The position numbers and the translations under genes are program-made. From Pseudomonadota bacterium (lineage in GTDB: Bacteria > Bdellovibrionota_C > UBA2361 > OMII01), in the NCBI GenBank assembly GCA_027485595.1, contig JAIXQT010000185.1, positions 727 through 64,726 of the forward strand: 64,000 bases of DNA, written 5' to 3'. The notes below the pieces were generated by a model. It worked only from the letters and a program-made list of their open reading frames with translations. It did not search any database and had not been told where the DNA came from. Positions 13,920-32,369 of this stretch are shown piece by piece. Numbering within the stretch: the first letter of the stretch is position 1; every line of letters starts with the position of its first letter.

Positions 13920-14393
13920 CTATTCAAGCCTAGAGAGCTCATCCTGGATTCGTCGCTCCTCCTCTGAGGTGAGGACAGACGCGCTCACGCCGGGCCGATC
14001 GGTGTTAATCTTTTTGCGGCGAATCGAGAGGTACACCGCAACGACCAAACCGATTGCGACGAACCCAAGAGGGACGATCCACACAAACATCCCCACGCCC
14101 GAAAACTTTGGAACGGCGCGGTATTGCTCTCCGAACTTTTGGATTACCTCATTGAGAACCACTTCCGAGGATTTTCCAGCCTCAAGTTCCGCGCGCATCT
14201 GATCCTTCAGCTCCGCGGCCTTCGAACTTGGACAATCGTTCAACGAACGGCCCGGGCAGAATGGACTGAACACCTGCTGATAGAGATGCGTTGCCTCTCG
14301 ATCAAGAGCCTCAGTTCGCTCATCAGCGATGGCATTTCCAACGAAGAACGAGAGACAGAGAGCTAGAATGACATTACTTATGCTACTGCGCAT
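13920..14393 (-). CDS. ccmH: CcmH/CycL-like cytochrome c maturation protein
   Basis: Signal peptide, then FCPGRSLNDCPSSKAAELKDQMRAELEAGKSSEVVLNEVIQKFGEQY and a single C-terminal TM helix, which is the CcmH layout. The Cys pair is spaced CX7C rather than CXXC. Confidence 0.65.
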   Translation of the reverse strand: MRSSISNVILALCLSFFVGNAIADERTEALDREATHLYQQVFSPFCPGRSLNDCPSSKAAELKDQMRAELEAGKSSEVVLNEVIQKFGEQYRAVPKFSGVGMFVWIVPLGFVAIGLVVAVYLSIRRKKINTDRPGVSASVLTSEEERRIQDELSRLE

Positions 14394-15939: not shown

Positions 15940-15944
15940 CACAC

Positions 15945-16568
15945 TTACCGAATGAGATTTCCTATACGCGAGAGGCTGTCCCACGACCAGAACACGATGA
16001 CAGCTTTGCCTTTAATGCGGTCATCGTCCAAGAACGGCACCGTCCAGAATCGCGAGTCCTTCGATTCATCCCGGTTATCGCCAAGGAGAAGAACATGGTC
16101 GGCGGGAACGGTCTGAGGGCCAAAATCACCCTCCGGGCTACCCCCATGAACCCAACGGGTATAGGGCTCTTTGAGGGGTTCTCCATTGACGAACACCTGG
16201 GCCCCTCGAACCTCAACAGTCTCTCCGGGGAGTCCGATAACTCGCTTGATTATGTGAATGGCCGAGTCATCCTCAGTTGGCGTTGCTGGATCGTCAGGAC
16301 GGGTGAATACCACGACATCTCCTCGCTTCGGAACGCTCCAGCGAATAACGGGCGCATCCACAAACGGCACCCGGAGTCCGTACCAAAATTTCAACACGAG
16401 GATATAGTCACCGATCTGCAAGGTCGGCTTCATGGAGCCTGAAGGGATCTTAAAAGGCTCAACTATCTGAACGCGAATAAGAAAGGCGAGACCAAGGATA
16501 ACAACAAGGGTCTTTACGAAAGCGACGAGCTCCGCCCAAAATCCGGCCGCCTGTTGTTGTTCCGACAT
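15945..16568 (-). CDS. lepB: signal peptidase I (copy 2)
   Basis: PSGSMKPTL and GDNRDESKDSR. Start placed at the ATG at 16568 (MSEQQQAAGFW..). Confidence 0.85.
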   Translation of the reverse strand: MSEQQQAAGFWAELVAFVKTLVVILGLAFLIRVQIVEPFKIPSGSMKPTLQIGDYILVLKFWYGLRVPFVDAPVIRWSVPKRGDVVVFTRPDDPATPTEDDSAIHIIKRVIGLPGETVEVRGAQVFVNGEPLKEPYTRWVHGGSPEGDFGPQTVPADHVLLLGDNRDESKDSRFWTVPFLDDDRIKGKAVIVFWSWDSLSRIGNLIR

Positions 16569-17054: not shown

Positions 17055-17429
17055 TTTACAACCTCACAAAGAAGCACAACGTGTACCCCCATATCAGCCA
17101 TGGGGGAAATGGTGCTTCAGGGAAATACGAGCAGGTCGAAAATAACCTCAAAAACCTTGTCACATCACGTCACTAGGGGCTTCCAATCCTTTCACCACGC
17201 CATCCGCAAAACACGTATAATCCTGCGCATACATCGTAGTTTTGGGCAAAAACGAGACATCACATCCCATCTCGTGCGGCTTTCACAAAGTTTTCATCCC
17301 TCAATCTCTCGTAGCCACGCTATGGCCCCCAATTTTTGATGCCGATGGCGGCTACATACACGAGATAGAGAGCGTCGCAGTTCCGACCGTAATGTCACTA
17401 CGACGTACACAACCTTACTGAGACGGGCG

Positions 17430-19172
17430 CTATGAGCACCGGGAAGCTCGATCACTGCTCCTCATCTGCTCACAGTGCCACGCGCAGAACGCCTCCATCG
17501 TGCAGGATGATGAGAAGCCGATTTCTAGCGCGAGAGCCTGAAACGCCTCGGGGCAATCGCCGATCGTCAGCGCAACAGGGAGGCTCTTAAAGAACTGCCG
17601 ATTGAGCTCCCACAGCTCTTGCGAGAGCGCGACCTCCTCTTCAAGGGGTACACTCATTCGCCGCGAGTTTTGCACGTACGGGAGGAGATACGGCACCCTC
17701 GCGACTGCGCCACCGGGAAGCCGAACGACCAGCCCCCCCTCGCGGGAGCCCACAAGAAAGTCGCGAACATCCCCTGCCTCAACAAGCGCTTCTCCGGCCG
17801 AACACTCCACGGTACGAAGGCTCACCCCTTCGCACACCTCCTGAACTGAGATGACTCCCTCAATGTGGATCCGTTGCGGCAGGAGCTGACAAACCTCTCG
17901 GATCGTTCTCCCCGTCGCGATATCATCATCCATCAGTAGATAAGAACCATCGGGTATCGCCGCAATCTGAACACCCAGATCGGCTGATCCCGGGCGAGGA
18001 AAGATTCCGCTGAGGCGCTCACCACTGGTGACGTTAAACCTGCGTGAGATAGCGATCGAATGATCGCCATCGATACATGCGTCTAAGCTGATAACTGGGT
18101 GGTGCGAGCGAACAATTACCCCGTCCATGCGACGCCGTTGCTCGGAGAGGGAGACCCGCGTTACGGACACCGTGGCGTGTGGCATTCGCCGACGAAAGGC
18201 ACGCTCGAGTATCGTAGCGAGCGACCCAACGAACGCTCGTTGCGCCCACTCAAGGTCAACGCCAACGCGGGCACTCCACCCATCGGTGCTCCAGGCCTCT
18301 TCATCACGGAGAAAAAGTTCAACCTTCGTCGGCACCTTTGTCGCTTGAAGTGCACACAATTCCTGGCTGACCTTGGGAGGAAGCCCACCTGAGCGCCCTT
18401 TTCGGATGACACGAGAGGCGATTGCATTCGGAGTATGGTCGCGCGCCACAAACACCCTTTCTGACCGAGCAGCAAGGGGATCAAGCAAAGCCTCACCATC
18501 TGTGCCAGCGCGGGGTACGATAACGATACGACCGTGGTCAAGGAACGCTTTACTAAATCCTGCGTTATCGCCACCACACACAAAGAATATCTCGATGGGA
18601 TGACCAACTTGAAGGGTGAGGTAGCGTGAGAGTCTTCGCACGATATCCGTGTAATTCACGGCCCGGTCAAGGTAAAGTGCTGCCCACGGGTCGACATCGA
18701 GCCAGGTGCTTTCGCTTGTGGCGAGTCGTGCGAGATGGGTGCGTTCCGCGCCTGACAGTGCCTCCTCGCCACACTTAGTTCGTACGTACCCATCATGATC
18801 GGGGGCGAAGAATCCGCCGACGACCCGCCATCCCCGCTTCTCGACCTCGAGCCGCGCGCTCTCCATCATCGCTAGATGGCCGTTGTGGATCGGGCAAAAG
18901 CCCCCAGATGTTACAAGCACCGCAATCGGCTTGTTTGACTCGGCACCTACCTCGTTGATTGCGTCGCATATCTTGATGAGCGGAGTGACTAAGAGCCTGT
19001 CATCAACCGTCTTGGAGATGTCACAACCTACCGGCACCCCATCATCGAAGAAGCCAGCGGCCTCAAGATGCTCGGCGCCATATCTTATGAGCACCGATGC
19101 GTAGAACGGGTCGGCGCTCGCCTTCGCTATCACACGACTCGAAGCTCCCGCTCGATGTTTGACCATCCCCAT
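17430..19172 (-). CDS. fusion protein: NMNAT-type nucleotidyl(adenylyl)transferase domain plus type I phosphoribosyltransferase domain
   Basis: 580 aa. N-terminal half: VLVTSGGFCPIHNGHLAMM ((H/T)xGH motif) and AIASRVIR (ISSTxxR-like). C-terminal half: PRPP-binding loop SYLLMDDDIATGRTIRE. It is the last gene of the operon, 4 nt after the preceding stop. Confidence 0.75.
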   Translation of the reverse strand: MGMVKHRAGASSRVIAKASADPFYASVLIRYGAEHLEAAGFFDDGVPVGCDISKTVDDRLLVTPLIKICDAINEVGAESNKPIAVLVTSGGFCPIHNGHLAMMESARLEVEKRGWRVVGGFFAPDHDGYVRTKCGEEALSGAERTHLARLATSESTWLDVDPWAALYLDRAVNYTDIVRRLSRYLTLQVGHPIEIFFVCGGDNAGFSKAFLDHGRIVIVPRAGTDGEALLDPLAARSERVFVARDHTPNAIASRVIRKGRSGGLPPKVSQELCALQATKVPTKVELFLRDEEAWSTDGWSARVGVDLEWAQRAFVGSLATILERAFRRRMPHATVSVTRVSLSEQRRRMDGVIVRSHHPVISLDACIDGDHSIAISRRFNVTSGERLSGIFPRPGSADLGVQIAAIPDGSYLLMDDDIATGRTIREVCQLLPQRIHIEGVISVQEVCEGVSLRTVECSAGEALVEAGDVRDFLVGSREGGLVVRLPGGAVARVPYLLPYVQNSRRMSVPLEEEVALSQELWELNRQFFKSLPVALTIGDCPEAFQALALEIGFSSSCTMEAFCAWHCEQMRSSDRASRCS

Positions 19173-19176
19173 AGCG

Positions 19177-20934
19177 TTACCCCTTCATCACCCTCTCGAA
19201 CAGGACATCCGTTCGGATAATCACCTTAGGTGTCCTTCCGCTCCACGGCTCAGAGTCGTGGAGGAGCCTGTGATCAAAGATAAGTGCGCGCCCCGCTGTG
19301 GGCGTTACCGCTGCAATGACCTCCTCATCGCGGGCCTCACGCGTCCAATCCGAGAAGTCACGCGCCGCGTAGGGGAGCGAGAGCTGCGGATCCGTGATAA
19401 AGCGGGTTCGGCCCCCACAAGCGGGGTCGCACTCATTGAGGTAGAGGACGAGGCTCATCAAGGTATGGGTCGCGCCGTCACCTGGATTAAACCCGGCGTC
19501 GTAGTGAACGACGAGCTCCCCACCGTTCTCATACCAGATAAGGCGAAACGCGGGGTTCACCCCGACCGCGCGCCATACGGCGTGCCCGCCCCAATCGGTT
19601 GTCGCGTACTCATCGAAGGTGCGTGGGGAAGCAACGAATGGTGCCACCCGTTCCCACACCCGAGCAGCAAGCTCTGGGGAATAGACCGTCGCCCGCCATG
19701 AGCCCACCTGCGAAGTCCCAGTGGTGAAACCCTTCACGTATCCGTTCGTTCCAACGGGGATTCTGCGCTGACGCGATACCTCGCTGATCAACGCCTCACA
19801 TTCATGGTGGGAGAGTAGCCCCTCAATGACACGAGCCTCACCCCCAACGCCCTCTACGCTCTTTGAGAGGGGAGAAGGTCTCACTCGCTCAAATACGTTG
19901 AGCGGCACAAGGGGATTGAGGGGAAACTCCCCCACAAGTCTCCGCTCGGTGGGTGACACGGTATAGTTCCCCTCCTCTCTCCACCCGCCTGGGACGGCGC
20001 GCTCATAGAGACTCAGGTGCACTGAAGGGTTGCCCCCCACGTACTTGTGCAGATTATATCGGTGCATCTCCTCAATCCGCGCGCCCCATTCTTCAAACTG
20101 CCGGACGGCCCCAGGGGAAAGTGTGCGCACCGCCTCAGTACGCTCCTTCTCGCTCAGGCACAAAAGAGCCGTGTAGAGCTCAACGAAATCATACGGAGCC
20201 CCGATCATCTCAAGGTGGGTTTTCCCGTCGTAAACATCGCCCGTTGGTGCGGCGCCGAGCGTCCCCATCGGAACCTTCAAGAGCTCTCCAAGGCGATACA
20301 CCTCGCTCTTGTGGAGATCCGAGATGATCTGAAGATCCACCATCCCATCTGAGGCCTTCCCGAAGAACCCGAGGTAGCTCCCCTCGTCTCTATTCGTCGT
20401 TCCGCATACGATCGCGGGCGTTCCCGACGCGGAGAGAAGCGCTGAGAGATAGTAGAGAGCCGGAGTGCGAAGGTAGGCGACGAGCTGCCCGTCAGCCCAC
20501 GCGTTTCCCCGAAGATAGGAACTTTCGCTCACAGCACGGCGAGCTGCCTCAAAGGTCGCACTAAGGTCGGGAACAACAAACTCGGCGTTGAAGGCCTTCG
20601 CCACGGCTTTAGCTCGGTCACGCGCGCGATCCTGATCACTCGCCCCCTGATCAACAAAGAAGGGAAGCGATGCCGCAACGATTCGCGATATCGGCGATCC
20701 CTCCATCCGCGACGCGACACTCACAAGCCCCAGCACAACCGCAGAGTCGACGCCGCCACTTACCCCAACCACAAGCCCGGAAAGTTTGTGCACCCGGCAG
20801 TAGTTGTTAATGAGTTCAACTTTTCGAGCGAGGCACTCCGCGGCGTCGAAGCCACGCCTGGCGCGAATCTCGTGGAGCGCCGTAGCAAACTCCCCATTCA
20901 TCGTCTCGTTCATCTCATGTCGTGGAACTAACAT
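19177..20934 (-). CDS. fusion protein: NH3-dependent NAD+ synthetase (NadE-type PP-loop amidoligase) domain plus C-terminal 2OG-Fe(II) oxygenase (prolyl-4-hydroxylase-like) domain
   Basis: 585 aa. PP-loop VVGVSGGVDSAVV and NadE block GTTNRDEGSYLGFFGKASDGMVDLQIISDLHKSEVYRLG. C-terminal VVHYDAGF (HxD), SLVLYLNE..GGRTRF, ALIFDHRLLHDSEP (distal His) and VIIRTDVLF. Confidence 0.8.
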   Translation of the reverse strand: MLVPRHEMNETMNGEFATALHEIRARRGFDAAECLARKVELINNYCRVHKLSGLVVGVSGGVDSAVVLGLVSVASRMEGSPISRIVAASLPFFVDQGASDQDRARDRAKAVAKAFNAEFVVPDLSATFEAARRAVSESSYLRGNAWADGQLVAYLRTPALYYLSALLSASGTPAIVCGTTNRDEGSYLGFFGKASDGMVDLQIISDLHKSEVYRLGELLKVPMGTLGAAPTGDVYDGKTHLEMIGAPYDFVELYTALLCLSEKERTEAVRTLSPGAVRQFEEWGARIEEMHRYNLHKYVGGNPSVHLSLYERAVPGGWREEGNYTVSPTERRLVGEFPLNPLVPLNVFERVRPSPLSKSVEGVGGEARVIEGLLSHHECEALISEVSRQRRIPVGTNGYVKGFTTGTSQVGSWRATVYSPELAARVWERVAPFVASPRTFDEYATTDWGGHAVWRAVGVNPAFRLIWYENGGELVVHYDAGFNPGDGATHTLMSLVLYLNECDPACGGRTRFITDPQLSLPYAARDFSDWTREARDEEVIAAVTPTAGRALIFDHRLLHDSEPWSGRTPKVIIRTDVLFERVMKG

Positions 20935-20942
20935 ACTCCCTC

Positions 20943-21578
20943 CTAGTAAAATACGTGTGTAAGTCGTGCATGTGCCGCCCGATACGGTGAAGCGTTCATG
21001 ATGAGCGCCGCCTTTCGCTCCACCGCGCGGTAACGCTCCTCAAGTACCGACGTCACCTCTCGGGCCGTTGGAACCTCAGGCACCGAGATCTCCCCGAGCC
21101 GAGCAAGATTCCATGTGGCGACAAGGAGCGCGCACGTGGGTTCAAAAGGTCGAGCGGCGATACTTCCAAGTGCGACACCTCCCTCAGGTGTGTCGAGAAA
21201 GAGGACCCGCTTCGGCGCCCTGCGAAATGGCTCAAAGTAGAGCCTCCGTCGTGGAAGCGTGGCGATTAAACGTTTGGCGGCATGTATGAGCGAGCTTTCG
21301 TTCACTACCGTATCGACCGAGTGGCCGCACATCGTCACGCCACGCCGTATCTCATGGGGCGTGAGCGCTGCGCGAGTTACGTGAATATCATCAAGTAATA
21401 CAAGCGACCGGACCGTCTTTCCGCTCTCTTGAAGTCGCCGCGCTACACGTTTGGCGATGGCGACGCTCTCACTGTGCCGCTCGGTGAACGACTCATCCGC
21501 GTAGACGTGCGCGCATTCGATACTCACATCACAACTCACCATCACTCCCTCCGCATCGAAAAGCCACCAGGTCATCAC
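20943..21578 (-). CDS. hypothetical protein (operon ORFan)
   Basis: 211-aa ORF overlapping the upstream gene end by 50 nt, or 14 nt if it starts at 21542. It contains a degenerate PRPP-loop-like string SLVLLDDIHVTRAAL, which is only weak evidence. Confidence 0.55.
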   Translation of the reverse strand: MMTWWLFDAEGVMVSCDVSIECAHVYADESFTERHSESVAIAKRVARRLQESGKTVRSLVLLDDIHVTRAALTPHEIRRGVTMCGHSVDTVVNESSLIHAAKRLIATLPRRRLYFEPFRRAPKRVLFLDTPEGGVALGSIAARPFEPTCALLVATWNLARLGEISVPEVPTAREVTSVLEERYRAVERKAALIMNASPYRAAHARLTHVFY

Positions 21579-22485
21579 CGCTCACCGTCAATCGGTCGAA
21601 GGTAACTGGATCTTGTAAGAGCTCGAGCGAGGTAGCCCCCTTATCAGTGAGCGCCCGCCGCAAACTCACCGCCACCTGCCGAACAAAGCTCATGACATGC
21701 GTTAACTTCAGAGCACGGTGGGTGAAGCTGGGGTAGTCGAGGAGCGCCACGATCCCACCGGGTCGAACCGATGCAACAAGGGTATCCGCGAGAGCAGGAA
21801 CGACGCGATCGATGAGCGAGGCATCGGTTACTATCTCATCCCACACCGCGGCGTATCGCTCTTCGCACGCATACAGCGGCCCAACCTCAACTCCCCGACG
21901 AGCGCAGTAGGAAGAGAGGATCAGATCATCGAGGAGGTGGTTCCCGAACAGAGCGTCGAACCGTGCGGGTGGAGTCTCCGAGAGTGCACCCCTTCGTGTC
22001 GTAGCGTGACCCCGCGCTCCAACGAGCAAAAGAAATCTCGCCGCGTGTGAAAGAGCCTCCGCGTCGGTATCAATAAGCTCAATAGTCCCAGCGAACCCGG
22101 CATAGTGCAGCCCACAGGCCACCTTCGGCACATACCCGCATCCTACCTCAGCGACCCGTCCGTCTTGGGGCAGCTCGATCTGTTGCAGAATCTCCCGCCA
22201 CACCTGCCCTACCGACCAGTAGAAGGTTAGATCGAGGAACAGCTCCTCGGTGCGCTCCGGTATACGGAGCAGATTGCGAGGTGTGAATGAGCTCTGCCGA
22301 TATTCGCGAGAGACGAGGCGACGAGTCGCTCGCGAGAGATCGCCGATGAACCGCTCAACTTCAACCGGGTCATACCTTCGGCTTCGACCGATCCGTACGG
22401 CCCGAGCCGCGGCTCGCCCAAGGCACGCACTCAGCGACGACGTGACCTGCCCACCAGAACACTTCAGTTGACCTATGCCGCCCAT
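21529..22485 (-). CDS. class I SAM-dependent methyltransferase-like protein
   Basis: 318 aa. Motif I-like VAEVGCGYVPKVACGL followed by an acidic IELIDTD. The start overlaps the ATP-grasp stop by 13 nt. Confidence 0.6.
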   Translation of the reverse strand: MGGIGQLKCSGGQVTSSLSACLGRAAARAVRIGRSRRYDPVEVERFIGDLSRATRRLVSREYRQSSFTPRNLLRIPERTEELFLDLTFYWSVGQVWREILQQIELPQDGRVAEVGCGYVPKVACGLHYAGFAGTIELIDTDAEALSHAARFLLLVGARGHATTRRGALSETPPARFDALFGNHLLDDLILSSYCARRGVEVGPLYACEERYAAVWDEIVTDASLIDRVVPALADTLVASVRPGGIVALLDYPSFTHRALKLTHVMSFVRQVAVSLRRALTDKGATSLELLQDPVTFDRLTVSGDDLVAFRCGGSDGEL

Positions 22486-23504
22486 GCCGCATCCCTCCTT
22501 CCGCCTATCGTCTCAGGAAAGATCATGTCCACGATCATCGAGGCCACGTTTCGTGGTCGCCCTCTCCCTGGCGCCATGTGGATCCCGATCCCAGGAACTG
22601 AGTTGATCTCAAGCACTCGATACGAATCCCCATCCTGCTTCTCTCGGATATCTCCGCACATAAAGTCGATACCGGCATAGGGGAGCCCGGGAATGGACGC
22701 GAGTGCCCGGTTGCAGATCTCTATCACCGATGGATGCGCGAGCTCGGTCACATCCGTTGGCACACCCCCCTTCTTTACATTCGAGCTTCCACGCAGATAG
22801 ACCTTCTCTCCAAGGCGGGGCACGGAGGAGAATGAGAGCCCCTGGCGCTTCAGATGCTGGGAAGCCTCACCATCAAGTGCGATCGGACAGAGGCAATTGA
22901 TTCTTGGGTGCGCCCGTCGGTAGCTCTCCCACGTGGCGAGGAGCTCTATTGAGTGAGCACCATCGCCGATGACGTGCGCGGGATCCCGGTGGAGCACAGC
23001 GAACCGACCTCGCGCAGTGAGAAACACTCGAAACTCGTGTCCCGTGAAGTGCTCCTCAACGATCACCTCCTGATTGCCAGATTCGTTCACGATCGCCTGA
23101 ACCGCCGCGCGTACCTCTTCGACGCTTTCAAGGCCCGTAAATACGTTTTCCCCCTGCACACCGAAGCTGGGCTTAACCACAACTGGAAAGCCAAGTGTGC
23201 GCTCCGCGTAGAGAGCTACCTCATCGACCGCTTCGGTCGGAAAATGATGCCCGCGGGGAATTCGCACTCCGGCTCTCTGAAGGAGACGTTTCGTGAGGGA
23301 TTTACTCCCAGCGATAACCGAAGCGGTGTAGGGTACGATGGAGCTATCTATATCCGAGAAGAGCTCTCGATGATCGCCGTAGGTAGCCTCGAGTATCTCA
23401 TTGGTTCGATCAAAGAGGGTTACCTCGATACCGCGGAACATAAGCTCTTGGGCTAGGAACCTCTGATTCGCTCGAAGTTCGGAAACGTTGAAGACCTCTC
23501 GCAT
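22473..23504 (-). CDS. ATP-grasp ligase (cyanophycin synthetase N-domain / GshF-like type)
   Basis: 343 aa. FPVVVKPSFGVQGENVF, VIVEEHFTGHEFRVF, SSNVKKGGVPTDVTELAHP and YRVLEINSVPGI are characteristic ATP-grasp blocks. Confidence 0.8.
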   Translation of the reverse strand: MREVFNVSELRANQRFLAQELMFRGIEVTLFDRTNEILEATYGDHRELFSDIDSSIVPYTASVIAGSKSLTKRLLQRAGVRIPRGHHFPTEAVDEVALYAERTLGFPVVVKPSFGVQGENVFTGLESVEEVRAAVQAIVNESGNQEVIVEEHFTGHEFRVFLTARGRFAVLHRDPAHVIGDGAHSIELLATWESYRRAHPRINCLCPIALDGEASQHLKRQGLSFSSVPRLGEKVYLRGSSNVKKGGVPTDVTELAHPSVIEICNRALASIPGLPYAGIDFMCGDIREKQDGDSYRVLEINSVPGIGIHMAPGRGRPRNVASMIVDMIFPETIGGRRDAAWAA

Positions 23505-23507
23505 GAC

Positions 23508-24092
23508 TCACCCTCCTGTGTTTCGATAGCCACCCGATCTACTTTCGCCACACGAAGATGGGGTACTCCTTGATGAACTAACCACCCGGGCGCGGGCGCG
23601 CTTCTCGAACTCCTTGCCAATAAGCTCAATCAACTCCTCCCGTCGTGCGCGTTCCGGTTCGGTAAGGCCTCCAGCGGAGTCCTTCATGCGAAGGTTGCTG
23701 TACTCATCGAGTAACTCGACCGGAGCGCTCAGCGATCGAAGTGTGAGTGCCTTGCCTGAGACTGCCACCGGGGTTCTTACAAGAACGACCTCCTCGATGC
23801 CGGGGACATCGCGAACACGAACTCTCGTGCCATCATCTCGAGGCTCTATCGAGAGGATCTTTGAAAGGTCACTCGGACGGTAGGCAACTACCCCTGTGGT
23901 TGATTCTGAGATGAGGAGCGAACTTCCCTTGAGGTGGAAGAGGTAGCTCTTGCCTTTGGGAAGCTCGAGGGGAAGCGCTTCGATCACACGAGCGGCGCTC
24001 TCACGCGATCCCCCCAGCCAGTAGTGGTCCCCTGGGGCTCGTGTCACAATGGTTGTCACGTTATCAAACTGCGCGTTTGTCGCTCCTCTCAT
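23508..24092 (-). CDS. hypothetical protein (first gene of the operon)
   Basis: The ORF track starts at the TTG at 24152. The ATG at 24092 is preceded by AGGGGGAAGGG. The stop lies 3 nt before the ATP-grasp start. No motif recognised. Confidence 0.55.
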   Translation of the reverse strand: MRGATNAQFDNVTTIVTRAPGDHYWLGGSRESAARVIEALPLELPKGKSYLFHLKGSSLLISESTTGVVAYRPSDLSKILSIEPRDDGTRVRVRDVPGIEEVVLVRTPVAVSGKALTLRSLSAPVELLDEYSNLRMKDSAGGLTEPERARREELIELIGKEFEKRARARVVSSSRSTPSSCGESRSGGYRNTGG

Positions 24093-24376
24093 ACCCTTCC
24101 CCCTCATGTGAGAGCTCAGAACACTCTGACTCTTGAGAACCACTATGTTCAAATTAATACTAGGCAGCTACTACGTGTATCGATTACCAGGAAACAGAGC
24201 GCAGAATGCGCATCGGTTCACAACACGGCGCATAACGCTCCAGACGCAAAGGATAGTTGGGAAACCCCTTTGAGCATCGAGTCCTACCGCGCCGAGTGAA
24301 AAGAGCTTATTTTCAGACGAAAAATGGCCGGTTCGTTCTCCCATTCCTCTCTCGAGGCGCATCTGCACTGACGAGA

Positions 24377-24619
24377 ATGACGAATCTTCTCAATCCAGAC
24401 GATCCACAACCGCGGTACTCCTGCCAGGTTGCCGTTGCCGGCTGTGTCCGAAAGACGATTCCGAAGCAGGAGCTCATTAAGGCGTTCTCTGATATCTTCA
24501 CCGCAAAAGTCCCGAAGGGGCTGAACTTCCTCGTTGCTAACGCTACAAAAGAGATCGCAGCGTTCAAGAGGGAGCTCCGCAAAGTGCCCGACCACTATAC
24601 TGAGTGTAACGAGCGCTAG
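24377..24619 (+). CDS. possible small Cys-containing protein (80 aa), divergent from the operon
   Basis: Internal ATG of ORF 24257..24619: MTNLLNPDDPQPRYSCQVAVAGCVRK..HYTECNER. Codon usage looks like neighbouring genes. The overlapping minus-strand ORFs are Arg/Cys-rich and look spurious. Confidence 0.35.
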   Translation: MTNLLNPDDPQPRYSCQVAVAGCVRKTIPKQELIKAFSDIFTAKVPKGLNFLVANATKEIAAFKRELRKVPDHYTECNER

Positions 24620-24690
24620 TCTCACATCTTGCGTTACCTTCCGACGGGACTTCGTCGCGACGGAGGCCACCAGCCCTGCTTTTCCGCATG

Positions 24691-25971
24691 TTAGGACAGT
24701 GATGGCACGGAATCTCGTCGATACATCGCAACACCCGCGAAGGTAACGGCGCAATCGCTCGGGTAATCCACCGCCTGATCATAGGCAACTACATCAACTT
24801 CAGGTTTGCCACCCAAACGATTCAAGACGTCGAGCACGAGGTACATCGTTGGAAAGCCACAGACGCGGCGAGCGTCCTGATCCTCGGCGATATGATCGAA
24901 GAGCGCCTTTGGATTGCACTCCTCGATAGCGCGTAGGTATTGCTGGTCGCGGTAGCCTATCTCTCGCATCCGCTCAGGTGACAGCGCGCCATCATCGCCA
25001 AACGAGCGCCCGACGTGCGCCATATCGACTCCGGCGAGAAACGAGATCTTCTCCCCATATTTAGCTCTCTCTTTAATGATCTCGGTGAGAGCTCCAGCAA
25101 AGGTCTCATACTCCTCCCACTCCTGCGGATAGCGCATCGCCTCGAGCATCTGGTGGTAACTTCCCACAAGGATCGGAACAACAGGGGCATCCGATTGCAC
25201 CACTGAAAGGAAGGGAAGTTGCAATTCGAGCGAGTGCTCTCGCCGGTGAAGGTATTGATCAGCGAATGCGCGATCTACACCAAAACGATTCGCTAGCTGC
25301 GTAACGAACTTTTGATCACACGGATGCGTACCGAGCGGAGATTGAAAATCCTTCGCGCAGAGATGAAATATTCGTCTGCTGTACTGATGAGCGGTGCCGA
25401 TCAGGATGTAGGTATCAGCTCGTGATTCGGTGAGCCGGGGATATATGGCGCCGTAACACGCGCCACCCCTTCGGTAATCGATGTGCGGGGCGATAAGACA
25501 CGCGACATCTCGAGTTGTTGCAGGAGTCTCAAGGTCCTTGAGATATCCTCGCACCATCCCGGAAAGCTCCTCTTTGCTTGCGGGATATGCAGCCCCCGCC
25601 AGAGCCGCCGCCCGAACTGGCGCGGTAGTGAACGCATCCTTCGCAAGCTTCTCAGCCGCGAAGTACCGAGCGTTAGCCATAAAGAGATGGTCATCAAGTC
25701 GTGTGATGAGCTCGCGCAGCATATCAGGAGTAAGCCCCTGCGGGGCGAACTTCGCGACTATCTGCTCACTCGTCTGCACGCCATCGAGCTCAACGATAAC
25801 GGGAGCGAACTGTGGCATAAGCGCGAGCGGTGAGGCGGATATCCCGATCGGGCACTGAATGACGAGTGCGTCCTGCCCATCCAGATTGTGCATCCGGATG
25901 TCGAGGGGCCAGCGGAGTTTTGGGCGGGTAAACGTTGCGTCCATGGGGTACACATAAGGGTACATCACCAC
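24691..25971 (-). CDS. MEMO1-family (AmmeMemoRadiSam system protein B-like) protein with ~130-aa N-terminal extension
   Basis: 426 aa. LIAPHIDYRRGGACYG, ILIGTAH and LAGVDMAHVG match the Memo/extradiol-dioxygenase-like fold motifs. Confidence 0.8.
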   Translation of the reverse strand: MVMYPYVYPMDATFTRPKLRWPLDIRMHNLDGQDALVIQCPIGISASPLALMPQFAPVIVELDGVQTSEQIVAKFAPQGLTPDMLRELITRLDDHLFMANARYFAAEKLAKDAFTTAPVRAAALAGAAYPASKEELSGMVRGYLKDLETPATTRDVACLIAPHIDYRRGGACYGAIYPRLTESRADTYILIGTAHQYSRRIFHLCAKDFQSPLGTHPCDQKFVTQLANRFGVDRAFADQYLHRREHSLELQLPFLSVVQSDAPVVPILVGSYHQMLEAMRYPQEWEEYETFAGALTEIIKERAKYGEKISFLAGVDMAHVGRSFGDDGALSPERMREIGYRDQQYLRAIEECNPKALFDHIAEDQDARRVCGFPTMYLVLDVLNRLGGKPEVDVVAYDQAVDYPSDCAVTFAGVAMYRRDSVPSLS

Positions 25972-26037
25972 TCAGGAGGCGATCAAAGGAATTCCCCGTG
26001 AGGCGGGGTGGTCATGGCCCCTGGCGGTGTTCGGTTC

Positions 26038-26388
26038 TCAGCCAGCGTGATGCGGCTCAGCGACGGAGTAGCCTCCCCGCTCTGAAAGCTCTCGACGGAT
26101 AGATGCGGCTATCTCCTCCATCTCTACGTTCCCGCGGCCGGATATCTGGTGCGAATTCACGTTCACCGACGGGGTGGTAGTAGGATCGAACATTACCGAT
26201 ATTCCAGGGGAGGAACTCAACGACCACTTATAATCACCAGTGCGCGAGCGCTCCGGGAGGTGAATAGTACACAACGCCATGCCATACGCGGCGTTTGCAT
26301 CGACGAACCACGCATCGGCGAAGAGCGGGGCGACTACCTTGAGAGCGGCGTTAACTGCATCGACGAATCGTTGAGATCGGACGGGCAT
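26038..26388 (-). CDS. hypothetical protein
   Basis: ORF 26038..26493. The probable start is the ATG at 26388 (MPVRSQRFVDAVNAALKVV..). It is followed on its strand by the hairpin ccccgc-ctca-cgggg. Confidence 0.5.
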   Translation of the reverse strand: MPVRSQRFVDAVNAALKVVAPLFADAWFVDANAAYGMALCTIHLPERSRTGDYKWSLSSSPGISVMFDPTTTPSVNVNSHQISGRGNVEMEEIAASIRRELSERGGYSVAEPHHAG

Positions 26389-26718
26389 CTCAGTTACTTT
26401 CTCATCCGGAAGCGAGGTTTGAGATTGCGCTCGGCGGGGCGGCAGAGAGAGACACGCAAAGGAGAGTCGAGGTTGCAACAGGGGCTGGTGCATACGCGAT
26501 TCCTGACAGTGAAAGCATGTGACGACCGGCTAGGCATAGCACGATTTCGTTAAGGCGTGCGGAACTTTTTAATCCTCATAACAATTGAGGGGGTATTACT
26601 ACAAACGGGAACCATGGGGGCGTTTCCCCTAAAATTGGGGACGCTTCTGCTCTGTAGAAAAACTCTAGATCAAGCGTTGATAGCTACATTGTGGCAGATG
26701 GCTCGCAGAGCGAGTTCT

Positions 26719-26773
26719 CGATAACGTTATTAATGAGCGGCGGTGCTCCGTCCGCTCGGTTTGGTTGTTATGC
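26719..26773 (-). other. attC of cassette 2 (55 bp)
   Basis: Minus strand: GCATAAC-aaccaaacc-GAGCGG-acggagcaccg-CCGCTC-attaataac-GTTATCG (R''-L''...L'-R'). Confidence 0.75.
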
Positions 26774-26779
26774 CGTCCA

Positions 26780-27148
26780 TCAAGAGGAATATTCAATCCC
26801 CAACATGCGCAGTAGATATCTTGCTCCCACTATCATTGCGGCAATCAGCCAGATTTTCGCAATCACGCTAAGCTGGTTGCGCAGTTTCAACTTTCGTATG
26901 TGGAAAGAAAACAAGATTGTCCCAACGACCAATCCAAGTACGAAGAAGATTGCGACATCCCCACGCAAATCCCGACTTAAGTAATGACACCAAAGCTGAC
27001 TTAGCGTTGCCTTGGAGGCTTCAAAGGTTTGGCAGTATAGATTTCTACCAATATGGCAAAGAAAGACCGTGCTTAGCGTGCACGGAACTAGCGTTCCAGT
27101 GAGCAGGAGCAAATGAAGTAAGACCTGTTTCATTAAAAGAGCTACCAA
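26780..27148 (-). CDS. integron cassette 2 ORF: small membrane protein, function unknown
   Basis: 122 aa from a TTG start, or from the ATG at 27133 (MKQVLLHLLLLTG). Three or four hydrophobic helices. It starts 12-30 nt after the cassette boundary and ends 7 nt before attC. Confidence 0.6.
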   Translation of the reverse strand: MVALLMKQVLLHLLLLTGTLVPCTLSTVFLCHIGRNLYCQTFEASKATLSQLWCHYLSRDLRGDVAIFFVLGLVVGTILFSFHIRKLKLRNQLSVIAKIWLIAAMIVGARYLLRMLGIEYSS

Positions 27149-27160
27149 GACTCAAGAGCG

Positions 27161-27253
27161 GCATAACGTTTGACGTGAGGGGCGGCCGGAGCCGCAGGCG
27201 GAGGGAACCGCAAGCGCAGCTTGCGGACGTCCCTCTCGACGGAATTGTTAGCC
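27161..27253 (-). other. attC of cassette 1 (93 bp)
   Basis: Minus strand: GGCTAAC-aattcc-GTCGAGAGGGA...GACGTGAGGGG(rc)-aaac-GTTATGC. It is an imperfect inverted repeat. The TAA stop of the cassette 1 ORF lies inside R''. Confidence 0.75.
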
Positions 27254-27670
27254 GACATAGTGCTGCACCCAAGGGTTTTTGACGACTGACGCCAGCTGCG
27301 ATGGCTCAAACTCGAAGCCAAAGGAAACGGAATGCCAGAAACTTTGGTTTTCGGAAATGATGTGATGGCCAATGGAGCCCTGAACGGCCAACTGCCCTCT
27401 TGAATTTGCGGCGAACACTTTTAGCGTTAGCTCATTGGGGGACATCGACGACAGATTGGCTTCGCCCGCGAGAGCCTGATTGAGAGCGACCAACTCCGCG
27501 CAGAATTTTTTCATTTCTTCCGCGTGAGCCCACGCAGAGGCTGTGCCCTCGAACCCGTGCGAGCCCACAGATACTTCTATGTTTGCATCCTCGAAGCTGG
27601 GGAGCTGTGGCTCCTCTTCAACGAAGACACTCATCTCGAAAAAATTGTCGTGATTGGTAAGTCGGAACAT
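27248..27670 (-). CDS. integron cassette 1 ORF: hypothetical soluble protein
   Basis: 140 aa. The ATG lies 7 nt downstream of the GTTAGCC junction. No motif recognised. Confidence 0.65.
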   Translation of the reverse strand: MFRLTNHDNFFEMSVFVEEEPQLPSFEDANIEVSVGSHGFEGTASAWAHAEEMKKFCAELVALNQALAGEANLSSMSPNELTLKVFAANSRGQLAVQGSIGHHIISENQSFWHSVSFGFEFEPSQLASVVKNPWVQHYVG

Positions 27671-27677
27671 TGATGAC

Positions 27678-27684
27678 GGCTAAC
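27678..27684 (-). other. attI / first-cassette recombination junction (G|TTAGCC)
   Basis: The minus-strand GTTAGCC is the exact reverse complement of R'' (GGCTAAC) of attC at 27247..27253. Confidence 0.7.
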
Positions 27685-27910
27685 ATAGGTATTGTGCAGA
27701 TCCGGTGATCTAGCACGTTTACTCATTCCTTTCATCGTATCCCAGCGGCCGTCCCGCCCTCAATCAAAAATAAACCATCATGGATTCAGTCAATTAGAGC
27801 GACAAAGCTACCTTTTCGGCTAGTCCGGTATGTATACCTGAGAGTGTAGATCACCAGATCGGTTGTTCTGGGTCGCGAAACCTTTCTCCGGATTTTTCGA
27901 TACCCCTAGG

Positions 27911-28891
27911 ATGGAATCACATGAACGACCCAAAAAATTTCTGGATCTCGTAAGGGAACGAATTCGACTCCGGCATCTTAGTTATACGACCGAGAAGAGC
28001 TACATCGGGTGGATTCGAAGATTCATTCTCTTTCATGGCAAGAGGCATCCGCAGGAGATGGGCGAGGAGCATCTTGTGGCGTTCCTATCAGACCTCGCGG
28101 TTCAACGGAACTGTTCACCCGGCACTCAGAACCAAGCTCTCAACGCCATCGTTTTTCTCTTTCGGCATGTGCTTCGGCGAGACGTGGGTGAGTTTAAAGG
28201 TATTATGTGGTCCCGGCGAAAGCGGAGGGTCCCGGAGGTCATGACGAGGGAGGAGGTAGCGCGCGTACTTCAAGCGCTGAAGCACCAGCCCCAGAAATGG
28301 CTTATCGGATGTTTGCTGTATGGATGTGGTCTGCGACTATCAGAGGCGCTCCATATTAGGGTCAAGGATATCGAGTTCGGCCAGGGATTCATCGCCATTC
28401 GCGATGCCAAAGGAGATAAAGATCGAATTGTGCCACTCCCAAAAAGGTTGGTGGCTCCGCTACGAAAGCAGCTCTCAATTGCAGAGGGTATCCATCAGGC
28501 TGACATCAAGGCCGGATATGGTCGGGTGTCACTACCGTTTGCTTTGTCGAAGAAGTACCCGAACGCCGACCGGGAATGGGCGTGGCAGTATCTCTTTCCC
28601 TCAACGAAGCTATCGCGAGACCCTCGCAGCGGCGATATTAAGCGCCACCACATATTCGACACCTTCATGGACAACGCTGTGAAGCAGGCGGCGCTCGCCG
28701 CGGGTCTCTCAAAACGGATCACCTGCCACACCTTTCGCCACTCCTTCGCGACTCATCTCCTCGAGAACGGACGGGATATTCGTCTCATTCAGGAGCTGCT
28801 CGGGCACAGCGATGTGAAGACCACCATGATCTATACACACGTGGCGAAGTCACCGGTGCCGCGCGTGGTGAGTCCGTTTGATGAGTTGTAG
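27911..28891 (+). CDS. intI: integron integrase
   Basis: Tyrosine recombinase boxes GLRLSEAL, HTFRHSFATHLL and MIYTHV, plus the IntI-specific additional domain ALSKKYPNADREWAWQYLFPSTKLSRDPRSGDIKRHHI. Start taken at the ATG at 27911; the ORF track starts at the TTG at 27863. Confidence 0.92.
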   Translation: MESHERPKKFLDLVRERIRLRHLSYTTEKSYIGWIRRFILFHGKRHPQEMGEEHLVAFLSDLAVQRNCSPGTQNQALNAIVFLFRHVLRRDVGEFKGIMWSRRKRRVPEVMTREEVARVLQALKHQPQKWLIGCLLYGCGLRLSEALHIRVKDIEFGQGFIAIRDAKGDKDRIVPLPKRLVAPLRKQLSIAEGIHQADIKAGYGRVSLPFALSKKYPNADREWAWQYLFPSTKLSRDPRSGDIKRHHIFDTFMDNAVKQAALAAGLSKRITCHTFRHSFATHLLENGRDIRLIQELLGHSDVKTTMIYTHVAKSPVPRVVSPFDEL

Positions 28892-28952
28892 TGCGGTATA
28901 TCCTCCTTTCAGTGACACAACAAAGGATTGGCGTAGGCAACCGTACCAACTG

Positions 28953-30116
28953 TTACAGCGTGCCAATATCGGAGATCGGCACAATCGATACATCGTCAAC
29001 CTTAAACGTTTCCGCTCCCGTATAAACGATACACGACTGACTGACACGTGCGGACGGCTGCGCCCGGTAAAAGCGTATATTCTTGAGAAACTCCGCGTTA
29101 AAAGTGGAGCTTGCTTTAACCTCAAGAAGTTTGACATTCGCTCCGTCGTCGATCACAAAGTCGATCTCATGTCCGGCGCTATCGCGGAAAAATCCGAGGG
29201 AGTGCTCGCGGCCTGAATTGTAGCGATTCTTGATAAGCTCACTCGCCACAAAGGTCTCTACTATCGCGCCGCGCAGCGGGTGGTGCGCGATCTGTTCAGA
29301 GGAACGAATGCCGAGGAGGTAGCATAGAAGTCCCGTGTCGAGGAAGTAGAGCTTTGGAGACTTGAGGATCCGTTTAGAGAGATTGACATGATGGGGCTGT
29401 AGTCGAGTGAGGATAAAGCTCGTCTCCAGTACGGAGATCCACTCGCGGACTGTACTCTGATCGATACCGGCCTCAGCGCCGAGGTTTGTCGCGTTGAGGA
29501 GCTGTCCACTGCGGGTCGCGCAGAGCCTCAAGAAACGCTCAAAAAGACCGAGATCCCTCACATTTATTATCTGCCGAACATCTCGCTCAAGGTATGTTTG
29601 AACATAGAATGATAGGGCCTGACTTGGGTCCAACCTGTCATGAAGAATTCGAGGATAACCCCCGCTAAAGAGATAGTCATGCAGAGAGCTCGGTGCACTG
29701 CCAGAACTTTTCAATTCAGCCGAGCTGAATGGTAGAAGTTTAAGAATTGCGGTCCGGCCCGCGAGGGATTGGGAAACGGACTCCATGAGTTGGTACTGAT
29801 GGCTCCCGGTGAGAATGAACTCCCCGGTAGTGCCTCGCTCATCCACGGCGACCTGGATATACGATGCGAGCTCGGGTAAGTGCTGAATCTCGTCGATGAT
29901 GCATCCACCTTTGTGAGCATCGATGAATCCACGTGGGTCCTCCGCTATTCGAGCCCTTTCATCGGGTCTCTCGAGGTTGAACAGTGGCAGAGATGGAAAT
30001 GCCATCTTGCATAAGGTTGATTTGCCGGACTGGCGGGGGCCAACTACGGTAACCACCGGATACTGTCGGGATAGGCTTACGAGATGGGGGGAGAGGGCTC
30101 TTTCAATCACCCCCAC
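28953..30116 (-). CDS. AAA-family ATPase of the DUF4143 / COG1373 type
   Basis: 387 aa. Walker A VVGPRQSGKSTL, Walker B CIIDEIQ and a C-terminal restriction-endonuclease-like region, which is typical of this family. Confidence 0.75.
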   Translation of the reverse strand: MGVIERALSPHLVSLSRQYPVVTVVGPRQSGKSTLCKMAFPSLPLFNLERPDERARIAEDPRGFIDAHKGGCIIDEIQHLPELASYIQVAVDERGTTGEFILTGSHQYQLMESVSQSLAGRTAILKLLPFSSAELKSSGSAPSSLHDYLFSGGYPRILHDRLDPSQALSFYVQTYLERDVRQIINVRDLGLFERFLRLCATRSGQLLNATNLGAEAGIDQSTVREWISVLETSFILTRLQPHHVNLSKRILKSPKLYFLDTGLLCYLLGIRSSEQIAHHPLRGAIVETFVASELIKNRYNSGREHSLGFFRDSAGHEIDFVIDDGANVKLLEVKASSTFNAEFLKNIRFYRAQPSARVSQSCIVYTGAETFKVDDVSIVPISDIGTL

Positions 30117-30331
30117 AGATTAGGGTTTCAATCCCCAATATGCAAGATCTCATTTTAGAACAATAACCTCAGCTAGTTACGGACTCTCCTTGCCTTCCTG
30201 TGCCTCTTACGACACTACTTCCCGCTACAGGAGGGTAAAGCCCCTGTCAGTGCATGACTGAGGTGCTTTTCTAACAACGGCTTCCGAAACCTATCATCGT
30301 TTCCCTCGATATGTAGGTTGGAGGATTTTCT

Positions 30332-30841
30332 ATGTCACAACAGGAGCCAGCCCAACTAGTAGGTATCGAGGGATTAATTTACCTCATCCGCGGTCAAAAG
30401 GTGATGTTAGACAAAGATCTTGCGGCACTGTACGGAGTGGATACGCGGAGCCTGGTACAGGCTGTTAAACGAAACGCCCGGCGCTTCCCAGAAGACTTCT
30501 GTTTTTCATTGTCAGATCAAGAGTTTGGTATTTTGAGATCACAAATTGTGATCTCAAACCGCGGCGGTCGAAGAACACCTCCCCTGGTATTTACGGAACA
30601 GGGGGTCGCAATGCTCTCGGGTGTCTTACACAGCGACAGAGCCATCCAAGCGAACGTTGAGATCATGCGAACGTTCGTGAGACTTCGAAAGTTACTGGTA
30701 ACCAATGAAGCACTCGCAGAAAAATTAGACATTTTGGAAAAGCGCTACGACAAGCAATTCAAATTGGTCTTTGACGCTATTAGGGAAATTATGACTCCTA
30801 CTCAACCGCCCCCGAAACGAAGAATTGGTTTCGGGAGATGA
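30332..30841 (+). CDS. ORF6N (KilA-N-related) DNA-binding domain protein
   Basis: [50 protein letters not shown] is the characteristic ORF6N block. Confidence 0.75.
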
Positions 30842-30986
30842 TGCCTTTTGCGCTTTGAGCTGTGAGAGAAAATCGGCAGCCACCAAAATCTTTTGGGGTT
30901 AACGGGTCGTGACTCCGATTGATAAACTATAGGATGCCGTGTCGGCTCCCCGTCGCGTACACTTTGAGAGCGTATAGATATACCGG

Positions 30987-32369
30987 TCACTTCCCAATAC
31001 AGAACTTGGAAAAGATCCTGCCGAGAATATCCTCGGTATAAGTCTTTCCGATGATCTCATCGAGCGCATTGAGCGCTTCCCGAATATCGGCCACAAGAAT
31101 TGGCAACGCCGGTGTTTTTGAGGCGACGGCGTCAGCGAATCGAACGAGGGAATCCTCCGCTCGACGAAGGCAGTCACGATGGCGCTCATTGGTAACGACC
31201 TCTCCAACCTCTCCACGCTCCGGCATGCTTTTGCCAACGTCCTCAACGAGCGCTTCGATGAGCGCCCCAATGCCAGCACCGGTTTTCGCTGAGATATAAA
31301 AGTTCTGCTGACAGGTCTTTGAGTCACAGAAGACCTTGATCATCGCGTTTGGGTTGAGATCGATCTTGTTTACCACGAGCCATACTCGCTTACCGCTCTC
31401 CCGCAGTAGGTCAGCGGTTGACTGCCAGCTTAGGGCCTCATCGGTTGCGTCAACGACAAGGAGTACGAGATCAGCCCACGGAATACGTTCCTTTGCGAGC
31501 TCGACACCGATCTTCTCAATCTCATCGGTCGTTTCCCTAATACCGGCTGAGTCACAGAACACGAATTTCTGGCCTCCGAGCGATGCCTCCTCCTCGATAA
31601 GGTCTCGAGTCGTTCCCGATATCGGTGAAACGATCGCTCGCTTCTTTCCAAGAATAAGATTTAAGAGGCTCGATTTTCCGGCGTTTGGCTGACCACAAAG
31701 GAGCACGCGAGCGCCCTCTTTTACGAGAGCGCCGAACGCGTACGTAGAGAGGAGCTGCGACACCTTAGCGCGCGCTACCTCGGCGCGAGCCGCTATCTGA
31801 TCGATCCGTTCGGGCTCAATATCCTCTTCGGGGAAATCTATTGAAGCCTCAAGTTCAGCGAGTACATCTCGGAGCGGTTCGCCGATCGCGGATACCGCTT
31901 GGCTTAACCGGCCCTTCAATTGCTCTCCAGCGAAGCGGAGCTCCTCCTCTCCCTTGGCGTTGATTACATCGGCGATCGCCTCAGCTTGCGCGAGATCTAA
32001 CTTGCCGTTTAGGAATGCGCGCTTGGTGAACTCGCCGGCCGCGGCAGGAAGGATTCCGTATGCGTAAAGGGAGCGCAGCACCTGTTGCACAAGCAGAGGA
32101 CTTCCGTGGAACTGAAACTCGGCGACATCCTCTCCGGTAAAGCTCCACGGAGCGGGCATAAAAACCGCGAGCCCTTTGTCGAGAGTCGCTGACGTCTTAA
32201 AGTCCAGGATCTCTCCAAAGATAAGTGTACGGGCATGCCGCAGCGGATCTTTCTTACCCTTAAAGAGCGCTTTCAGCGCGAGTCTCGTGCGCGGGCCGCT
32301 CACTCGAATCACAGCGACCCCGGCGGGAACGGGCGCGGTCGCGAGTGCTGCTATCGTTGTTTCTTCCAT
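30987..32369 (-). CDS. mnmE: tRNA modification GTPase MnmE
   Basis: 460 aa. G1 motif GQPNAGKSSLLN and C-terminal FCIGK. Confidence 0.93.
   Translation of the reverse strand: MEETTIAALATAPVPAGVAVIRVSGPRTRLALKALFKGKKDPLRHARTLIFGEILDFKTSATLDKGLAVFMPAPWSFTGEDVAEFQFHGSPLLVQQVLRSLYAYGILPAAAGEFTKRAFLNGKLDLAQAEAIADVINAKGEEELRFAGEQLKGRLSQAVSAIGEPLRDVLAELEASIDFPEEDIEPERIDQIAARAEVARAKVSQLLSTYAFGALVKEGARVLLCGQPNAGKSSLLNLILGKKRAIVSPISGTTRDLIEEEASLGGQKFVFCDSAGIRETTDEIEKIGVELAKERIPWADLVLLVVDATDEALSWQSTADLLRESGKRVWLVVNKIDLNPNAMIKVFCDSKTCQQNFYISAKTGAGIGALIEALVEDVGKSMPERGEVGEVVTNERHRDCLRRAEDSLVRFADAVASKTPALPILVADIREALNALDEIIGKTYTEDILGRIFSKFCIGK

Follow-up and report, generated by a model that had tools for sequence, protein, structure and literature searches.

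A two-cassette locus downstream of mnmE in an uncultured bacterium carries the components of a complete integron

The region at 26719-28891 in a 64-kb stretch of contig JAIXQT010000185.1 (assembly GCA_027485595.1), derived from an uncultured bacterium, raises the question of whether a recombinase gene and two small units that diverge from it together form an integron. The whole 64-kb stretch, hereafter the window, was scanned on both strands (128 kb). An integron is regarded as complete when intI, the gene for an integrase with the specific domain, is accompanied within 4 kb by one or more attC sites, all on one strand, and a cluster of attC sites without an integrase is termed CALIN (Cury et al. 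2016, PMC4889954). The data presented below indicate that the locus is very probably a complete integron, consisting of intI, an attI insertion site and attC-bounded cassettes, in the chromosome of its host. As far as can be judged from sequence, all the components of a functional integron are there, and the cassettes are discrete units across genomes. The term 'chromosomal' is apt in the sense of the housekeeping context in which the element lies, rpmH-rnpA-yidC-mnmE.

The integrase gene occupies 27914-28891 on the plus strand and encodes 325 amino acids (aa) from its probable ATG at 27914; the mechanically derived open reading frame (ORF) extends to a TTG at 27863 (342 aa, 27863-28891, plus strand). 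The product matched the curated NCBIfam model TIGR02249, which served as the test for integron integrases, over the entire profile (positions 1-315 of 315), and its score of 435.4 bits exceeded the cutoff of 265, whereas its scores against the XerC, XerD and XerA models were far below their cutoffs. Pfam assigned the protein an N-terminal SAM-like domain (Phage_int_SAM_4) and a catalytic Phage_integrase domain. The best match among solved structures was VchIntIA (PDB 2A3V; E 3e-84, query residues 8-324 against chain positions 4-319), while XerC/XerD-type recombinase structures matched at E 1e-31 or weaker. The catalytic R, K, H-x-x-R, H and Y are all retained, within motifs (GLRLSEA, AKGDKDR, HTFRHSFATH, LGHSDV and MIYTHV) that align with their counterparts in 2A3V. 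An earlier reading made from the DNA without database searches (the sequence-only reading) had recognized an IntI-specific insertion in this protein. That segment, ALSKKYPNADREWAWQYLFPSTKLSRDPRSGDIKRHHI, is present and aligns with the matching region of VchIntIA, with the W of AWQYLFP, the P of DPRS and the RHH motif conserved. In VchIntIA these conserved residues contact extrahelical bases of attC, contacts that were reportedly described by MacDonald et al. in 2006. In the same alignment W157 of VchIntIA is replaced by R in the window enzyme, as in IntI1. Judged by its sequence, intI is intact. Exact-protein look-ups with IntI from both start codons, and with the neighbouring AAA ATPase, returned no record, and the nearest IntI among the species representatives of GTDB is 56% identical. 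A separate observation concerns public annotation. The Logan contigs L081 and L162 (run SRR16126907) are 100% identical to the window, and the public gene call on L162 at 916-1890 (window 28891-27917) divides intI into a 271-aa product and a spurious 51-aa ORF on the opposite strand; it also omits the ORF of cassette 2. Because the DNA is identical, the split call reflects faulty annotation rather than a frameshift.

The attC sites were sought with covariance models. A gathering search of the whole window against Rfam, and an E-value search of 20-32 kb, returned no relevant or attC-like family; as Rfam lacks a usable attC family, the model was built here. IntI relatives were sought in the GTDB species representatives, which gave 80 loci whose integrases are at most 56% identical to that of the window. 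A hand-written rule describing the R and L boxes proved unspecific, with six matches in the window compared with 8.4 expected in random sequence. It flagged evident arrays, among them one of 14 sites lying upstream of intI in locus L021, and was retained solely for harvesting training sites. A strict form of the rule, requiring both stems and both bulges, identified 36 sites across the 80 loci. Thirty locus sites, each trimmed to a constant 55 nucleotides (nt), made up the alignment (A1) from which a first covariance model, R1, was derived; a search of the 80 loci with R1 yielded 79 full-length sites (A2), and these were used to construct a second model, R2. Both models were trained on other genomes only, without any window sequence, and R2 was run unfiltered against both strands of the window.

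R2 returned two significant matches, both on the minus strand and both covering the full model: attC1 at 27253-27161 (46.1 bits, E 8.2e-9) and attC2 at 26773-26719 (32.6 bits, E 1.4e-5). The next-best match in the 128 kb scored 11 bits (E 1.7), so the array consists of exactly two attC sites. The ends of both matches coincide to the base with those that had been proposed by eye, on the same strand, and the proposed lengths of 93 and 55 nt are thereby confirmed. R1 also detected attC2 (41 bits, E 2.5e-7) but not attC1, whose stem is long and variable and which contains an additional bulge; that site was recovered by R2. When applied to the window, the strict two-bulge rule identified attC2 alone (12 of 12 pairs), compared with 0.46 matches expected. 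The strand of the sites is that expected for cassettes divergent from intI. One further candidate was rejected: a plus-strand match to the rule at 30269-30412 (TTCTAAC...GTTAGAC), which borders the ORF6N indel described below and overlaps the ORF6N start, was matched by neither model on the plus strand, and the nearest model signal was a weak one on the minus strand (R1, 9 bits, E 6.8).

The two sites share an architecture, in which a 7-nt R'' is followed by a 5-nt spacer, an L'' of 3 + 1 + 3 nt in which C is bulged (bottom-strand G), an inner stem with a bulged A (bottom-strand T), L', a 6-nt spacer and an R' that contains GTT. In attC1 (27161-27253, minus strand, 93 nt) the elements are R'' GGCTAAC, L'' CGT-C-GAG, L' CTCACG and R' GTTATGC, together with one additional bulge. 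In attC2 (26719-26773, minus strand, 55 nt) they are R'' GCATAAC, L'' AAC-C-GAG, an inner stem of CGG-A-CGG/CCGCCG, L' CTCATT and R' GTTATCG. The predicted fold of the bottom strand of attC2 displays an extrahelical T. When the R' of the circular form was restored (G plus the first six bases of the cassette), each site was predicted to fold as a single imperfect hairpin from end to end, with an R box of 7 bp, and in the chromosomal form the R box of both was predicted to be only partly paired. A covariance model and bottom-strand folding had both been advised as checks in the sequence-only reading.

The boundaries between the units were then considered on the minus strand, read away from intI. 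The attI insertion site lies at 27681-27719 (minus strand), with the crossover between G 27684 and T 27683 at the junction G|TTAGCC. Cassette 1 (27167-27683, minus strand) is a unit of 517 nt that begins TTAGCC and ends with G; the reverse complement of its R'' is GTTAGCC, which agrees with the attI junction at 7/7 positions. Cassette 2 (26725-27166, minus strand; 442 nt, TTATGC...G) begins at 27167|27166, and the reverse complement of its R'', GTTATGC, agrees 7/7 with the R' of attC1. Both boundaries, and the complementarity across them, had been identified in the sequence-only reading, where they were regarded as the signature of units inserted as circles at G|TT. The strength of that signature was calibrated on three genuine arrays, in loci L021, L172 and L173: complementarity at 7/7 positions was displayed by 26 of the 31 consecutive attC pairs and by 9.8% of non-consecutive pairs, and the test is therefore valid. 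Each cassette holds a single ORF that ends at or just before its attC, as was also proposed. The ORF of cassette 1 (27248-27670, minus strand, 140 aa) has its ATG 13 nt past the boundary and its TAA stop inside the R'' of attC1, and that of cassette 2 (26780-27133, minus strand, 117 aa from the ATG, or 122 aa from an alternative TTG at 27148) stops 6 nt before the R'' of attC2. Neither ORF has an obvious promoter of its own.

Comparison with other genomes suggests that the cassettes are mobile, as both recur in other arrays, where the alignments break off at G|TT. The whole of cassette 1, and nothing beyond it, is reused in two of these arrays. Window 27684-27165 aligns with L173 at 1724-2249 (85.6% identity) and window 27684-27161 with L172, from Uliginosibacterium paludis, at 5987-6507 (77.5%), both alignments starting at the G of G|TTAGCC, the attI-junction G, and stopping at the end of the attC; the TTAGCC start and the GGCTAAC R'' are common to all three. 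The copies sit within attC arrays, of five R2 sites for L173 and no fewer than 16 for L172, and many attC sites of the U. paludis array share 82-96.6% identity with attC1. The protein encoded by cassette 1 resembles WapI immunity proteins (Pfam PF24716, E 5.5e-10), and its homologs, 41-88% identical, nearly all contain PF24716 and include proteins from Uliginosibacterium, Ideonella and Rhizobacter. The closest are P0002 (88%, from a JGI contig) and P0003 (75% aa identity, from U. paludis). It is probable that the product confers immunity against a polymorphic toxin, and cassette 1 may have come from an array of the Uliginosibacterium type.

For the small hydrophobic protein encoded by cassette 2, a single cluster of homologs was recovered (P0012, 117 aa, 96% identity), which is present on 16 contigs in NCBI, JGI, ENA and Logan. 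The cassette 2 protein matched no Pfam, NCBIfam or PADLOC family, and PADLOC matched neither cassette protein. Cassette 2 is shared with loci L163-L171: window 27184-26720 is 96.8% identical to them over 465 nt, and the identity stops right after GTTATC in the R' of attC2. Beyond the last attC, a segment of ~225 nt (26494-26718) separates the array from a 151-aa ORF. No attC or ORF was detected in 26494-26718, and ~170 nt of it (26547-26718) have no counterpart in the related genome L174; they might be the remnant of an older cassette or the edge of an island.

Loci L163-L171 provide the closest view of what happens at attI. Their upstream blocks and attI are those of the window, and cassette 2 is shared too (97%), but intI is missing and the first cassette is a different one. 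The 39-nt block at window 27719-27681 is 95% identical in L163-L168; 29 nt are identical up to the G, and the identity stops at G|TTA, where the different first cassette begins. In L163 the module lies at 5136-6415, and this type of locus was seen on at least 16 metagenome contigs. Its attI-proximal cassette contains an ORF of 151 aa, with a signal resembling that of lipoproteins, and has a weak attC (19.7 bits); cassette 2 comes next. An epimerase/DUF1731 gene takes the place of intI, ending ~240 nt upstream of the crossover, and the module is positioned between this epimerase and His_Phos_1 in the context COX, SCO1, YqeY, epimerase, His_Phos_1. These loci are CALIN-type elements in which attI has been retained. 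The same attI followed by a different first cassette is what insertion by IntI at attI should yield.

The mechanism that best accommodates these data is that of integrons in general. IntI, a tyrosine recombinase, would recognize the folded bottom strand of attC, which corresponds to the plus strand of the window, and would recombine it with double-stranded attI between the G and the TT of GTT, replication resolving the recombination product. As IntI is expected to act at G|TT, circular cassettes would enter at attI (27684|27683) and leave through attC x attC or attI x attC recombination. Since new cassettes would enter at 27684|27683, cassette 1 is presumably the most recent arrival. Transcription of the cassettes would start at a promoter that lies upstream of attI, within the intI-attI region or close to it. 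This intergenic region (27685-27913) contains two conserved blocks, GGTATACAYACCGGA and TTTTGATTGAGGG, which occur in the same order ahead of the attI block in the intI-less loci L163-L171, and the promoters are presumed to lie here. The block TTTTGATTGAGGG, at about 27757-27774, contains TTGATT, which is no more than a candidate for a -35 element. The palindrome of the other block, GGTATGTATACC (27827-27838), is a perfect inverted repeat (GGTAT-GT-ATACC) located 76 nt upstream of the intI ATG and is kept as GGTATACACACC in the intI-less loci; it may be an operator, for example for an SOS-type repressor. A search of the window for the palindrome with one mismatch gave two matches against 0.67 expected, a number equalled in 13 of 100 shuffles, and so was not significant.

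Several observations weigh against this interpretation. The array holds only two cassettes. A consensus sigma-70-type scan detected no convincing Pc or PintI promoter, and its one weak site, inside intI (28365-28336), compares with 2.2 expected. No Shine-Dalgarno sequence is visible before either cassette ORF. Position 3 of L'' in attC2 is C where T is otherwise invariant, giving a G-T wobble on the bottom strand, and the E-values of the covariance models are rough, as calibration was shortened. The sole other copy of the exact locus, on L162, which is from the same sample as L081, is identical. The intI-less twin, stable on at least 16 contigs from many samples, shows that such modules persist without active shuffling. 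The small array, the identical second copy (in another assembly), the lack of a detected promoter and the stability of attI with cassette 2 are all compatible with a relic, that is, a once-active platform that has become frozen, with its cassettes now fixed chromosomal genes and its IntI silent or non-functional. This view, which we regard as unlikely, does not sit well with an intI gene that is full length and retains every catalytic residue. Nor does it explain why the IntI protein is 95% conserved in the related locus L082 when the backbone DNA is only ~81-88% identical, or why both attC sites keep their canonical pairing and bulges, with scores well above noise. The attI-proximal cassette, moreover, differs between the window and the L163-type loci exactly at the crossover, as recent IntI activity would yield. 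These data are more consistent with a complete integron whose integrase may continue to recombine cassettes.

The twin loci also invite a tentative extension of the complete-integron interpretation. The tetranucleotide signature of the L163-type backbone correlates with that of the window at r 0.82, compared with 0.82-0.95 for proven relatives and 0.23-0.65 for unrelated loci, and L082, which has intI, and L166, which has the intI-less module, both come from metagenome Ga0078894. Given these two findings, the mnmE-linked integron and the intI-less module might share a lineage, or even genomes, such that one IntI serves two attI sites in trans in a split or dual-platform arrangement, a possibility we consider doubtful. 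On the same reading, cassette 1 would in addition record the passage of a cassette from a betaproteobacterial array to an Oligoflexia-like lineage.

The genomic context of the integron bears on whether it is resident. The backbone genes rpmH-rnpA-yidC-mnmE are on the minus strand, and the integron begins 2.1 kb beyond the mnmE stop, the intervening DNA containing an ORF6N gene (30332-30841) and a gene for a DUF4143 AAA ATPase (28953-30116). The two match the PADLOC defence candidates PDC-S05 (E 3e-54) and PDC-S01 (E 1e-105), respectively, which places the integron among genes of the defence-island type. The ORF6N segment (window 30231-30988) is an indel, absent from L082. The position assigned to the integron in the sequence-only reading, downstream of mnmE beyond the ATPase and ORF6N genes, is thus correct. 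The accompanying claim that it directly adjoins the NAD-type cluster did not hold, as a 151-aa ORF (152 aa in the comparison with L174) and a Memo-like gene (24691-26493) lie between the integron and the NAD-synthase-like cluster. That cluster (17430-24152) encodes a cytidylyltransferase-like protein of 580 aa, a protein of 585 aa in which an NAD-synthase-like domain is fused to a 2OG-Fe(II) oxygenase domain, an ATP-grasp enzyme and several proteins without an assigned family, one of which gave a weak match to PADLOC mad2; it is absent from L174 and L175.

Related genomes vary at this locus, a comparison that the earlier reading had advised. None of the three outcomes that it had named as refuting an integron was obtained, since both attC sites gave significant model matches, the integrase matched the integron-specific profile and the locus varies among relatives. 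In L082, whose IntI is 95% identical over residues 85-325 and whose backbone DNA is 81-88% identical, the order intI - AAA ATPase - mnmE - yidC is kept; the cassettes are not seen because the contig ends inside intI. In L174 (GCA_027486155.1; MnmE 97% and DNA 86% identical), the nearest relative recovered, mnmE is followed by an unrelated 7.3 kb, with DIT1/PvcA-like, DJ-1, AsmA and lipase genes, then by the homolog of window 26546-24719, including the 151/152-aa ORF and Memo pair, from which the sequence jumps to window 17170. In L175 and L176 (MnmE 78%) mnmE leads almost directly, through ~0.6 kb, to the homolog of window 17099. Contigs L177 and L178 are uninformative regarding cassettes since they end ~380 nt after mnmE. 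L174, L177 and L178, nearer to the window on the backbone than is the intI-bearing L082, do not have intI at this position. The integron thus occurs in only some of the relatives. The synteny breaks of the relatives all fall at the mnmE stop codon, 30987. These differences define a hypervariable stretch of 13.8 kb downstream of mnmE (17.2-31.0 kb; 17170-30987), of which the integron is part. The nearest named MnmE homologs are from metagenome-assembled genomes (MAGs) of Oligoflexia and Deltaproteobacteria; as their identity is only 62-64%, the assignment of the host to an Oligoflexia-like lineage is tentative.

Variation of this kind could also arise if the integron were mobile, carried on an integrative island that occupies the mnmE (trmE) 3' end in the manner of Salmonella genomic island 1 (SGI1), which is known to insert at mnmE/trmE. 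The loss of synteny in all relatives precisely at the mnmE stop, the wholly different segments between mnmE and the Memo-like gene pair in close relatives, the short array with heterogeneous attC sites as in mobile integrons, and the matches of neighbouring genes to PDC-S01 and PDC-S05, typical island cargo, would all fit an island. The 26.5-31 kb region, however, contains no other island integrase, transposase, Tn402-type tni, conjugation or mobilization gene, and no flanking direct repeats were identified around it. Furthermore, IntI scored 304.9 bits against the equivalog NF011946, used as the test for the mobile class, well below its cutoff of 435, and its nearest counterpart in the species representatives shares only the 56% identity given above. 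The presence of intI and the ATPase in the same place in L082, with its more diverged backbone, fits vertical inheritance or homologous replacement better. An origin on an island is therefore judged quite improbable, and a resident integron is preferred.

A chance association, in which an Xer-like recombinase happens to lie beside two GC-rich hairpins (terminators or repetitive extragenic palindromic-like repeats) with AAC...GTT ends, might draw on the unspecific R/L-box rule and on the lack of a curated attC model in Rfam, but is effectively refuted, and its probability negligible, given the two covariance matches (E 8e-9 and 1.4e-5, the next-best match being at E 1.7), the attC ends that coincide to the base, the 7/7 complementarity at both boundaries, the reuse of the cassette units in other attC arrays and the match of IntI to the integron-specific model, with XerC and XerD scores far under their cutoffs.

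The locus does not conform to the large sedentary type of integron, because the array is small and the attC sites, of 93 and 55 nt, belong to different families; as to vertical inheritance at a fixed position, the relatives point both ways, L082 having intI at the same place and the closer relatives L174, L177 and L178 lacking it. Nor is it a mobile integron of classes 1-5, given the NF011946 score and a neighbourhood that lacks transposition and plasmid genes. What the locus offers is a well-delimited integron with an attI crossover resolved to the base, in an uncultured lineage and with an IntI only ~56% identical to the nearest in species-representative genomes. It is also a natural example of one attI with different first cassettes in different genomes, and of one cassette, cut at G|TT, in the arrays of unrelated bacteria. 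The 39-nt attI and its two upstream blocks are ready substrates for recombination and regulation assays. The understanding of integrons is unchanged by this textbook case, which carries no resistance genes.

With respect to known systems, the resemblance to SGI1-type islands lies in the position just downstream of mnmE/trmE; no island integrase accompanies the integron. The class 1 mobile integrons share the short array and heterogeneous attC sites, and differ in that the window IntI falls under the NF011946 cutoff and is accompanied by neither tni/transposon genes nor resistance cassettes. A further parallel is the V. cholerae chromosomal integron (VchIntIA/IntI4, with the VCR attC family), which has an integrase of the same fold and family (E 3e-84 to 2A3V) with the catalytic and IntI-specific segments kept, the divergent layout of intI and attI-cassettes, and attC sites with R and L boxes and bottom-strand bulges. 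The IntI proteins are nevertheless clearly diverged, the Vibrio array contains well over a hundred cassettes compared with two in the window, its VCR sites are homogeneous and the two attC sites here are dissimilar, and the host of the window is not a gammaproteobacterium. The layout itself is not universal among the loci collected: in L054, from an Acidobacteriota MAG, ~25 nearly identical 76-nt attC sites (7062-16228, plus strand) lie downstream of intI (5427-6404, plus strand) and share its strand. This arrangement, termed 'inverted integrase', is the opposite of the divergent one in the window.

Other parallels are provided by loci that share parts with the window. The U. paludis array (L172, GCA_039631355.1) has a discrete cassette homologous to cassette 1 (77.5% nucleotide and 75% aa identity), with attC sites 82-96.6% identical to attC1; it belongs to a betaproteobacterium and consists of at least 16 similar attC sites, whereas the window has one such cassette beside an unrelated short attC. 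No intI was present within the 12.4 kb of L172 that were fetched. The CALIN elements L163-L171 have in common with the window the attI block, the upstream blocks and cassette 2 with its attC, and differ in the epimerase that stands in place of intI, the first cassette and the chromosomal context; the window is not a CALIN because its intI is intact. The locus also resembles the complete integrons of environmental bacteria in the IntegronFinder catalogue (PMC4889954), under whose definition it falls when attC is assessed with the covariance model built here. Like them it carries cassettes that are short, promoterless and of accessory or unassigned function, with no resistance genes, and it does not differ from them structurally.

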